This document shows, in pieces, positions 30,697 to 33,486 of a stretch of DNA of 64,000 bases (the stretch's first letter is position 1; each line of letters begins with the position of its first letter). Source of the stretch: Escherichia phage SpoonbillGilly; sequence record PP925828.1; one strand, 5' to 3'. Below the pieces are notes generated by a model. It was not told where the DNA came from. It worked only from the letters and a program-made list of their open reading frames with translations, and did no database searches. A program made the position numbers and the translations under genes.

Positions 30697-33486
30697 GTGT
30701 TCTCAATCCTACAAGGTCACGCAGGATTTTCCAGAGATAAAGCTACTGGCATCTGGAAAGAGATCAAAGTGGAAGATTATACCTTTGCAAAGCGATTCTC
30801 TAAAGAGCATCCAGAGGGTAAACCAGCTTCCATGCCCTTCAAATTTGATGTACTTGAAGAACTTGACCCGCAAAACCTTGCTGAAATGTTACCTATCATG
30901 CGTCGTCTTACCAAAGACCCGCATATTGTAGCTATTCGTGGTAAATGTTTAGCTCCAAAAGATAATGTGCGTCGTACCAGAGGAAACTTTAACGTATCCA
31001 ATCCTAGTCATATTATTGCTATGGACGTGGATGGTATTGTAGATACTGGTGGCTATGACAAGTTTAATCTTGTTGGCATGGCACGTCATATTATTAAGAT
31101 GTTGAATAGTATTAGTGAGGATATGTTTCCTCTTGATGCAGGGTTTATTGCTCATGCATCGTCTTCGGCTGGATTAAAACCAGGTATCCGAATGCACTTA
31201 ATGCTAGAATCTAATGTCAAGGTAACGCAGGGACAGTTAAAGTTCTTATTTACATCTATCAATGACAGTAGTAAGCAAAAGTACGGCTTTGATATTGCTG
31301 ACTTAGCTTATTATTCTTCTGTTCAGCTTCACTATTTCGCAGATCCCTTATTTGATGATGGTATAGTCGATCCGTTTAAAGCGGAGAATAAACCACGTCT
31401 TGTGTATGTTAAGGGTTCGAAGGTGAATCTACCTAATAACCTAGTTGACTTTGAAACAACTAGAGGTGAGTTTAAAGAAGAGTTCTACTCCTTACTTGAC
31501 CAGATTAAAGGCAAGAAGGCTGCATCTGATAAAGTGGAAGAAACCATCAGCGAACTAGAAGAAGCTGAGGATGGAGTGTACCTACGTATTATCCCAAAAC
31601 TTTATCACAGAGCGTTAGAAGATGGTGTTGATTTTACGTGGTTGGAACGTGAGATTAAACCAGCCTTATCTGAATATATTGCAACTAAGGATAATAGTCG
31701 TAATATTCAAGATTACTTTAATAACGGTCGTAAGCAGGCTCTCAAAGCCTTTGTAAATAACTCCAAACGTGAGATTCCACCAAACTTAAAAGGTGTACCA
31801 TTAAAACGTCTAGACACAGATTCTCCACCAGAAGTTCCATACCTGAAAATTAACATTGTACCACCAAAAGGACATTTAACATTTGTTAAGGCAAGTCTTG
31901 GTACGGGTAAAACTACAGCAGTAACTAAGTGGCTAGATGCAGGTGTTCTTCCAGGAAACTTTATTGCAATCACAAATACTAGGGCACTTGTATCTTCTAA
32001 CGCGAAGAAATTCGGTGCTGGCCAGTATGATAAGTCAGTTGATATGCTGAACTTCAAACGTGGTGCTATTGATCGTATGTCTTCAACTATTCACTCTATC
32101 CATAAGTTCAAGAGCTTTGTGGGTCAGATTGATACGATCTTTATTGATGAATGTGACGCAGTAATGAATGATCTGTTATTCGCTCCGGTTGTTAAAAACC
32201 GTCGTGAATGTATTCAGGTTCTTCGTGATATCCTTATTACTGCTAAAACTGTTATCTTATCTGATGGTGATATCAGTGCAGAAACGATTGAAGCCTATGG
32301 TTCTTTGATTGATTTTGATAAACCAGTTGCATTCTATAATCATCACCGTAAAATGCTGGCGAAAGCTCACGCTTATGAATTCCCTGACGAATCCAGTATT
32401 TGGGTTGCACTTCAAACATCTCTAGAGATGGGTGAGAAGTCAATCCTAGTATCTGACTGTGGACCGGATGAACTGAATGAAAAAGGAATGGCATTACGTC
32501 GTAATACTGGTGCGTTAGTTAAAGAAATTCACTCAAACTCTACGTCTGATGTAGATATCCGACGTATTCTGGATTATACAACTAATGAGCTAATTGATCA
32601 ACAGATTGATTGTTTGTTATGTAGTCCATCTGTAACGAGTGGTGTTGACTTTAACTATTTTGATAACGTATTCGTAATCACTAGAACCTCAAACCAAGCG
32701 CCAAACATGCGTTTCCAAGCAATCAGGCGCGACCGTGGTGCTCAGAATATCTATTACTTCATTGATAAGTCTACAAGTGGATTCTCTGCCGGTTCCGAGC
32801 AGTATAATATTGACGAAGGTTGGATTGAGTTAGCCCAACAACTGTACGCACGTCGTCGTGAGCTGGAATCTAGAAACTATACTAGTACTTTGCGTTATTA
32901 TCTGCTTGATCAGGGTGCAACTATCGATATTTTCAGCGAAAGCTGGGGAACTATCGAAGGTGCAGGAAAAGAGTATACAGAAGAGCGAATCAAAGCTATT
33001 TTGCACTCAACTCCTGAATATTGTGCACCACGTCATGCAGATGCCTATGAAGCCAAGTTACTTCTGGTTCGCTATTATCATCTGGATTCTATTAAAGATG
33101 TAACAGTGGAACACGTTGAACAGTATATCAAGGATAAACCAAACGATAGAGCTGCATTCTTCCATAAGATGCACGACATGTTCTGGGAAGATATTAAAAA
33201 GTGTTCAAACGTAACAATCAAACCGTTTATCGAAGCTCTTAAGAATAAGAAGAAGGATTTCTTCCTTAAGACAGGTCAGAGCGCTAACCCAAAATATGCT
33301 CGTATGTATCTTGGCATGATGGGTATCGGTAAAGATCTGGATACGGAAAAGATTGTGGACTGGTACAGAACTTACTGTAAGATCGAATGTATGCCGATTC
33401 CAGTTAAGTTTATGACAGATGAAGAACGTCAGATGCATGAGGAAGCTCTTGCTGAATTGGGGGCTAGAAATGACAGCGAAGAATAA
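30697..33486 (+). CDS. large P-loop NTPase / SF2-helicase-like protein with about 400-aa N-terminal domain of unknown function
   Basis: Walker A VKASLGTGKTTAV, Walker B IFIDECDAV, later SPSVTSGVDF and FQAIRRDRG; start set at GTG about 30697 after AGGAG. Confidence 0.6.
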   Translation: MFSILQGHAGFSRDKATGIWKEIKVEDYTFAKRFSKEHPEGKPASMPFKFDVLEELDPQNLAEMLPIMRRLTKDPHIVAIRGKCLAPKDNVRRTRGNFNVSNPSHIIAMDVDGIVDTGGYDKFNLVGMARHIIKMLNSISEDMFPLDAGFIAHASSSAGLKPGIRMHLMLESNVKVTQGQLKFLFTSINDSSKQKYGFDIADLAYYSSVQLHYFADPLFDDGIVDPFKAENKPRLVYVKGSKVNLPNNLVDFETTRGEFKEEFYSLLDQIKGKKAASDKVEETISELEEAEDGVYLRIIPKLYHRALEDGVDFTWLEREIKPALSEYIATKDNSRNIQDYFNNGRKQALKAFVNNSKREIPPNLKGVPLKRLDTDSPPEVPYLKINIVPPKGHLTFVKASLGTGKTTAVTKWLDAGVLPGNFIAITNTRALVSSNAKKFGAGQYDKSVDMLNFKRGAIDRMSSTIHSIHKFKSFVGQIDTIFIDECDAVMNDLLFAPVVKNRRECIQVLRDILITAKTVILSDGDISAETIEAYGSLIDFDKPVAFYNHHRKMLAKAHAYEFPDESSIWVALQTSLEMGEKSILVSDCGPDELNEKGMALRRNTGALVKEIHSNSTSDVDIRRILDYTTNELIDQQIDCLLCSPSVTSGVDFNYFDNVFVITRTSNQAPNMRFQAIRRDRGAQNIYYFIDKSTSGFSAGSEQYNIDEGWIELAQQLYARRRELESRNYTSTLRYYLLDQGATIDIFSESWGTIEGAGKEYTEERIKAILHSTPEYCAPRHADAYEAKLLLVRYYHLDSIKDVTVEHVEQYIKDKPNDRAAFFHKMHDMFWEDIKKCSNVTIKPFIEALKNKKKDFFLKTGQSANPKYARMYLGMMGIGKDLDTEKIVDWYRTYCKIECMPIPVKFMTDEERQMHEEALAELGARNDSEE

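Follow-up and report, generated by a model that had tools for sequence, protein, structure and literature searches.

Bacteriophage T5 is a classical model phage in which the way replication starts is still undefined. Wong, Sayers and Sanders (2013) cloned exactly the T5.108 open reading frame (ORF) of this phage, named it D2 and reported that its product is an ATPase and a 'bipolar' (3'-5' and 5'-3') helicase with a preference for 3'-5' unwinding (PMC3632103). The recombinant full-length protein had the predicted size, DNA binding was reported as non-specific only, and a K405E substitution abolished ATPase and helicase activities while DNA binding was retained. The only regions assigned were a UL9-like helicase at residues 389-690, a predicted helix-turn-helix (HTH) at 308-329 and two coiled coils; no function was given to the N-terminal 390 or so residues, and no domain belonging to the archaeo-eukaryotic type of primase (AEP) was assigned (PMC3632103). 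The present report concerns the counterpart of T5.108 in Escherichia phage SpoonbillGilly (PP925828.1), located at positions 30697-33486 of an analysed stretch of 64,000 nucleotides (i.e., the window). A preliminary description, made from the letters of the window alone, had called the N-terminal domain uncharacterised; the protein as a whole is not, its helicase activity having been published in 2013, though the N-terminal 390 or so residues were indeed without an assigned function there. We consider it likely that the gene encodes a four-module primase-helicase that would act as a self-contained primosome for T5-type replication.

Among solved structures, that of UL9 from herpes simplex virus 1 (HSV-1) comes nearest to the helicase part, and both proteins are superfamily 2 (SF2) helicases. 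UL9 has no AEP domain and herpesviruses keep their AEP primase, UL52, as a separate protein, whereas the D2-type protein probably has both fused; neither the C-terminal origin-binding domain of UL9 nor the RVKNL motif of that domain could be detected in the D2-type protein. The order of N-terminal AEP, helical domain and C-terminal helicase is shared with pRN1 ORF904, poxvirus D5/E5, African swine fever virus (ASFV) PrimPol and P4-family 'primase_Cterm' proteins. In contrast with the D2-type protein, in which the helicase is UL9-like SF2 and no PriCT domain is detectable, these fusions carry superfamily 3 (SF3; D5/VapE-type) helicases and usually PriCT or Zn modules. The only published fusion of an AEP with a UL9-like SF2 helicase that was found is that of the All3500 AEPs (pVOG9714/1685; Kazlauskas et al., 2018, PMC5862659). 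The D2-type protein has the same combination, but its AEP domain is not All3500-like; a term search of the supplementary lists of PMC5862659 turned up no T5-like phages. CyRepA1 plasmid replication proteins (NF042913) show likeness in the helicase part only, below the family cutoff. The D2-type protein is thus probably an AEP primase-helicase fusion with an unusual UL9-like SF2 partner, a rare combination, and a notable one in that the AEP primase paired with UL9 in herpesviruses is a protein of its own.

The gene is the Epseptimavirus orthologue of T5 D2 (T5.108) and belongs to the phrog_3712 group, as judged from full-length similarity and synteny. A megablast search with the 2790-nucleotide (nt) coding sequence matched 457 phage records, 440 of them with at least 80% coverage, and the closest matches (98.7% identical) were Salmonella and Escherichia phages of the genus Epseptimavirus (Demerecviridae, T5-like phages). 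The protein encoded by T5.108 (AAU05245) is 94% identical over 926 residues, the two agreeing also in length, gene neighbourhood and leader, and the sense cloning primer of Wong et al. matches the T5.108 start exactly (PMC3632103). A T5-type tRNA cluster is present in the window and the T5 early replication cluster lies 3' of the gene. In the T5 reference genome (NC_005859) T5.108 is labelled 'replication origin binding', and some GenBank records call the protein 'DNA primase' or 'DNA primase C', names for which no published analysis was found in the literature. Pfam gave no Toprim or DnaG match in the D2-type protein; such domains sit in a separate gene at 40477-41367. What is novel here is the AEP assignment of the N-terminal domain, the gene itself being already known and partly characterised as a helicase. 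The gene and the modules and motifs of its product are as follows.

30697..33486, plus strand: coding sequence of the D2-type putative primase-helicase, stop included (929 residues, GTG start)
30685..30689, plus strand: Shine-Dalgarno sequence AGGAG, 7 nt before the GTG, conserved in the leader alignment
30697..31446, plus strand: probable AEP-like (primase-polymerase) domain, residues 1-250, with a homology core at about 25-250
31012..31035, plus strand: putative AEP motif I, IIAMDVDG (D110, D112), both Asp invariant and on model strand 104-114
31153..31206, plus strand: putative AEP motif II region, HASSSAGLKPGIRMHLML (S155, S157, H167), invariant in the phage family
31291..31353, plus strand: putative AEP motif III region, DIADLAYYSSVQLHYFADPLF (D202), with D202 invariant in close and distant alignments
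31474..31764, plus strand: alpha-helical domain, residues about 260-356, including the HTH at 308-329 predicted by Wong et al.
31864..32796, plus strand: UL9-like SF2 helicase core, residues about 390-700 (Pfam, PDB profile, Foldseek, NCBIfam and T5 D2 biochemistry)
31900-31914, plus strand: Walker A, GTGKT, residues 402-406
32146-32157, plus strand: DECD, residues 484-487
32635-32649, plus strand: TSGVD, residues 647-651
32716-32739, plus strand: motif VI from Q674 to G681, with RRDRG at residues 677-681
32797..33483, plus strand: C-terminal all-helical domain, residues about 701-929, with confident helices in the full model

The N-terminal domain is a regular part of the protein. In a tblastn search with residues 1-398, matches were obtained in 905 phage records, all but two of which (903) covered at least 80% of the query. 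Close-family alignments (A1 and A2) comprised 53 sequences, i.e., the window protein and 52 added homologues, with identities down to about 30-33%; invariant N-domain residues among these included K32, R81, R93, D110, D112, S155, S157, H167, Q180, D202 and Y206. The preliminary description had proposed structure prediction of this region, and AlphaFold2 run with this homologue alignment gave a predicted local distance difference test (pLDDT) score of 88.8 for residues 1-398 (87.6 for the whole protein) and an AEP-like fold. In the model, a mixed alpha/beta region extends to about residue 250 and is joined by a low-confidence linker (250-260) to a helical bundle that ends near 356; two RecA-like lobes (about 394-700) and the helical C-terminal domain follow. 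When the N-domain model was compared with the PDB by Foldseek, the top 50 matches were almost all AEPs, the best being LigD polymerase (E 2e-3, probability 0.98); others included ASFV PrimPol, cyanophage S-2L PrimPol, RepB', Prim-PolC, D5 and human PrimPol. The scores of these fold matches were moderate, yet consistent across two methods. Weak matches of the N-domain to GGDEF and zeta-toxin sequence profiles (E>0.1) were discarded.

The AEP motifs have been defined as hhhDhD/E (motif I), sxH (motif II) and hD/E (motif III) (PMC5862659). In the D2-type protein, IIAMDVDG on a beta strand fits motif I, SSSAG..GIRMH on the next strand pair fits motif II and D202, placed after a long helix, fits motif III. 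D110 and D112 were invariant in the 53 close sequences as well as in 30 distant N-domain sequences (alignment A3), and H167 was invariant throughout the phage family. In A3 the sole invariant residues were D110, D112, D202 and P217; the motif II pattern SSSAG.KPG.R.H was kept, with Arg in place of His in some distant relatives. Assignment of D110, D112, H167 and D202 as the AEP motif residues is based on the sequence pattern and on strands of the predicted model.

Distant relatives of the N-domain were also informative. With the N-domain alone as query, a word-indexed protein search gave only two fragments, and the full-length query was used for homologues. Exhaustive phmmer with residues 1-398 against 1.8 billion representatives gave 93 matches. 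In the distant matches (E 1e-9 to 1e-4) the domain lies N-terminal to PriCT_2, D5_N, DUF5906, Pox_D5, VapE-like or P4-family 'primase_Cterm' modules, and the remainder of some such proteins showed weak SF2 signatures instead of SF3-type modules. The N-domain also matched the first 220 or so positions of phrog_16950, a 'DNA primase' group in PHROGs. The AEP assignment is thus confirmed by distant relatives with classical AEP primase and SF3 helicase architectures, and residues of about 1-250 probably adopt, according to the model, a divergent fold of the AEP primase-polymerase type in which the catalytic motifs are intact. These findings agree with the suggestion in the preliminary description that the domain could be a primase-polymerase, primase activity being what we infer from fold and motifs. 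The accompanying statement that the N-terminal 400 or so residues match nothing was correct for Pfam and PDB sequence profiles but not for structure.

The SF2 motifs listed in the preliminary description (GTGKT, DECD, TSGVD and RRDRG) were all present, and the key residues K405, D484, E485, Q674, R678 and R680 did not vary among 53 homologues with identities as low as 33%. Walker A K405 and motifs II, V and VI are at the positions published for T5 D2. The Pfam model Herpes_ori_bp (PF02399) matched residues 391-533 with 21.9 bits (cutoff 20) over profile positions 48-197 of 820 only, i.e., the helicase N-lobe, and a PDB profile match to UL9 (E 4e-6) was limited to motifs I-III. Comparison with herpesvirus UL9 had also been proposed. 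The best Foldseek matches of the full model were four chains of the origin-binding protein (OBP)/UL9 of HSV-1, with E values from 5e-15 (9hgi) to 1e-13 over 570-740 alignment columns, while generic SF2 helicases appeared at 1e-10 and weaker, five orders of magnitude behind the best UL9 chain. Residues 392-707 matched positions 2-316 of the NCBIfam CyRepA1 profile (NF042913; E 1.6e-35, 123 bits, below the family cutoff of 200), which links the helicase core to replication initiators.

In the mechanism that these modules suggest, an AEP/PrimPol domain (residues about 1-250) would bind metal and nucleotide through D110-x-D112, H167 and D202, followed by the helical bundle (about 260-356), the UL9-like SF2 core (about 390-700) and the helical C-terminal region (about 701-929). 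The ATP-driven helicase would open duplex DNA or translocate along it, and the tethered AEP domain would prime the exposed strand for T5 DNA polymerase, either at initiation from internal origins or at restart. Primer synthesis by the D2-type protein, the coupling of both activities and a role in initiation are inferred from these modules. The early replication cluster around the gene comprises ligase, D5, a DnaB-like helicase, a DnaG-like primase and polymerase. Two members of it are relevant here.

38957-40480, plus strand: DnaB-like helicase, 5.5 kb downstream of the D2-type gene
40477-41367, plus strand: DnaG-type primase with Zn ribbon and Toprim

Because these DnaB-like and DnaG-type genes exist besides the D2-type gene, two priming systems can be proposed for the phage, and the D2-type enzyme may act alongside the DnaB-like helicase and DnaG-like primase and perhaps be redundant with them. 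Should D2 be a primase-helicase, two priming systems would be present in T5 and in some 900 sequenced relatives, which would account for the tolerance scored when one or the other was knocked down singly. In a CRISPRi-ART screen of T5, only 17 genes were called Fit; pol, D5, D11 and D3 were Fit, and the DnaB-like D6, the DnaG-like pri and D10 were Not Fit (PMC11879866). This pattern could reflect two redundant primase-helicase systems and could also reflect false negatives or low sensitivity, since so few T5 genes were called Fit.

Several observations weigh against a primase-helicase. T5.108 itself was Not Fit in the screen (PMC11879866). No curated AEP family was matched by residues 1-390 in Pfam, PDB profiles or NCBIfam, and no report of primase activity or of an AEP domain for the D2 protein was found in the literature. 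Membership of the All3500 AEPs was rejected, as hhalign of A3 against eight All3500 sequences (A8) gave a probability of 0.2% and motifs II and III differ. PriCT identity of the helical domain was likewise rejected (no Pfam match in 15 family members; hhalign of A7 against PriCT_2, probability 0.07%), and neither a PriCT nor a zinc module, the usual support of AEP priming, was detected in the D2 family. Finally, older genetics cited in PMC3632103 speaks in favour, D2 amber mutants being without net DNA synthesis, but this phenotype may belong to an ORF other than T5.108; the link between genotype and phenotype is uncertain because NC_005859 gives the name D2 to T5.111.

The name D2 thus stands for two different genes of T5 in papers and databases, T5.111 being the next-but-two gene. 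Its counterpart in the window (33772-34476, plus strand, 234 residues) is called 'D2 / helicase' in NC_005859 and 'putative helicase' in phage IrmaTschudi. Pfam revealed no helicase motif in this ORF, only a weak HTH_28 match.

The long upstream leader noted in the preliminary description is real, the ORF-free gap being 616 nt and the untranslated leader after the promoter about 490 nt. A gap of 590-830 nt was kept in the Escherichia/Salmonella, Klebsiella, Pectobacterium, Proteus, Providencia and some of the Vibrio phage loci examined (Demerecviridae). In one Vibrio phage locus it measured only 354 nt, and some metagenomic relatives had a short gap or none. The leader contains no ORF of more than 43 residues. 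The signals and predicted RNA elements of this region are the following.

30104..30124, plus strand: intrinsic terminator of the upstream operon; a terminator is annotated at the equivalent place in T5
30151..30225, plus strand: early promoter region, with TTGCAG at 30172-30177, a 17-nt spacer and TATAAT at 30195-30200; equivalent to an annotated T5 promoter
30272..30635, plus strand: conserved, putatively structured RNA of about 360 nt in the 5' leader, with strong compensatory covariation among T5-like phages of E. coli/Salmonella, Klebsiella and Pectobacterium
30272-79/30283-90, plus strand: predicted leader RNA helix
30305-14/30626-35, plus strand: predicted closing helix of the leader RNA
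30350-60/30559-67, plus strand: predicted leader RNA helix
30502-09/30531-38, plus strand: predicted leader RNA helix
30510-21, plus strand: predicted leader RNA hairpin GGCUUAGCGGCC
30571-75/30587-91, plus strand: predicted leader RNA helix

The early promoter did not appear in the list from a consensus scan because its -35 hexamer is weak. RNAalifold applied to an alignment of eight leaders from five lineages returned 45 pairs in seven helices. With the structure scored on the alignment from which it was derived, 90.9% of the alignment cells were paired as compared with 34-48% when partners were slid, 24 pairs were changed on both sides as compared with 6-12, and the covariation score was 0.49 as compared with 0.09-0.15. 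In 500 shuffles, the observed value was reached by none for four of five measures and by one for the fifth, and the window leader had a fold z-score of -3.9. The closing helix is formed in four lineages by different sequences (AACUAUUAC/GUAAUAGUU, AACUGUUAC/GUAACAGUU, GAUUAUUAUACAG/CUGUAUAAUAAUU and GGUUAUUAUAUAAC/GUUAUAUAAUAACC), and conservation of G-U pairs indicates a plus-strand RNA.

The central 260 nt or so of the leader (30364-30602) occurs in two strongly diverged versions of equal length among E. coli/Salmonella phages that are otherwise about 90% identical, with islands common to both (e.g., GGCTTAGCGGCC); the versions were compared at loci L013, L014, L016, L018 and L020. The version other than that of the window shares GUUGCCACCCC and GAGAAGUG with Klebsiella and Pectobacterium phages and, from these sequences, looks ancestral. 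Covariance models of Rfam 15 gave no relevant match at E<=1 for the leaders of the window and of loci L013 and L025. A partial covariance model of the central hairpins found only its own lineages and a near-duplicate Klebsiella locus (L039), with nothing in Providencia, Proteus or Vibrio phages; a similar GCUUAGCGGC hairpin can nevertheless be made out by eye in the Providencia phage PR1. No further lineages were found by blastn with a Pectobacterium-phage leader, and screening viral contigs with a 14-base pattern of the 5' hairpin gave mostly chance matches.

As judged from these alignments, the leader element is a candidate for a new family of structured RNA, in a phage that has been studied well, and may be a more novel item than the AEP assignment. 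Translational operators are known for T4 gene 43 or gene 32, and ColE1 RNA II is an origin/primer transcript. By analogy, the leader RNA could be a translational operator or an origin/primer transcript; its coupling to D2 would then be autoregulatory or would involve a transcript handled by the enzyme. The combined proposal of an initiator module, in which an active AEP primase fused to D2 forms a second, redundant priming system and a new RNA class of about 360 nt is coupled to D2, is offered only tentatively.

Among the alternatives to a primase-helicase of replication initiation, the one that fared best is a PrimPol-type repair or restart factor. Such a factor would act by repriming or unwinding, at stalled forks or at the site-specific nicks of T5 DNA, and growth in the laboratory would not require it. 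This we regard as possible but rather unlikely. The Not Fit score of T5.108 is what such a factor would be expected to give, but the CRISPRi-ART screen cannot discriminate in this case because the DnaB-like and DnaG-like genes were missed too. The resemblance of the helicase core to the initiators UL9 and CyRepA1 plasmid Rep argues against a repair factor, as does the phenotype of D2 amber mutants cited by Wong et al. (PMC3632103).

Somewhat less probable is a true UL9-like, sequence-specific origin-binding protein, the C-terminal domain of which would read an origin, possibly in the adjacent leader. UL9 was the top structural match over its 570-740 columns and the Herpes_ori_bp match was just over threshold; moreover, initiator genes often adjoin origins and the leader is unusually conserved. 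The Pfam match, however, covers the helicase N-lobe only (48-197/820), and the conservation of the leader by compensatory pairing, G-U pairs included, points to RNA rather than to a duplex binding site. The origin-recognition domain of UL9 comprises residues 536-851 and carries the RVKNL motif (PMC12543377). This motif is absent from the D2-type protein, and a profile of residues 690-929 found nothing in the PDB, so that identity of the C-terminal domain with the UL9 DNA-binding domain is unsupported. The label 'replication origin binding protein' therefore reflects likeness of the helicase lobe to UL9 and is not evidence of origin recognition; if a primase-helicase is correct, this widespread label should be revised. 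With regard to the 'origin-binding or initiator helicase' of the preliminary description, the initiator-type SF2 helicase was borne out by the match to UL9 while the origin-binding part was not.

It is less probable still, and in our view quite unlikely, that the N-domain is AEP-derived yet catalytically dead and serves the helicase as a module for DNA or origin recognition or for protein docking. The distance of the sequence from all curated AEP families, the failure to find a PriCT or Zn finger, the replacement of the motif II His by Arg in several distant homologues and the DNA binding retained by D2 K405E (PMC3632103) are all consistent with a dead domain. In contrast, even very distant relatives keep the motif I Asp pair and the motif III Asp without exception and His167 does not vary within the phage family, which weakens the case because inactivated domains normally lose such catalytic residues.

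The start codon of the gene is GTG 30697 and the coding sequence is 30697-33486, exactly as given in the preliminary description. The longest open frame (30574..33486) begins with an ATG at 30574, 41 codons 5' of the GTG. The phrog_3712 profile (927 positions) aligned over positions 1-927 with 1817 bits, beginning at residue 42 of this frame (i.e., GTG 30697); AGGAG precedes the GTG; all homologues have ATG or GTG at the equivalent codon; and in relatives the frame is shut a few codons upstream of the start, that of locus L027 opening exactly at the start. Coordinates of the gene follow from these four observations. That the N-terminal 400 residues are a wrong-start artefact of a gene beginning near Walker A can be dismissed, the unusual GTG being all that favours it, in view of the profile alignment, the ribosome binding site, the starts of homologues, the full-length N-domains in 903/905 phage records, the confident N-domain fold and the predicted size of recombinant T5 protein (PMC3632103).

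The 30574-30696 extension is annotated as coding sequence in some GenBank records (leader matches H28, H29, H31-H33, H36, H43 and H45). It overlaps the 3' strand of the closing helix of the leader RNA and shows no conservation as coding sequence.

Directly 5' of the leader are two tandem paralogous small genes, 29247-29675 and 29685-30080 (plus strand), which correspond to T5.106 and T5.107 and both belong to phrog_2502; of these, T5.107 came out as Fit in the CRISPRi-ART screen (PMC11879866). On the minus strand, window positions 650-11225 contain 16 (ARAGORN) to 17 (Rfam) tRNA genes, typical of T5-like phages. At the other end of the gene, T5 hegI (T5.109, an HNH homing endonuclease; T5 62318-62836) overlaps the 3' end of the T5 D2 gene. 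The window and phage IrmaTschudi are without hegI (compared at 33486-33772), and the D2 gene is followed by a T5.110 homologue at 33470-33703.

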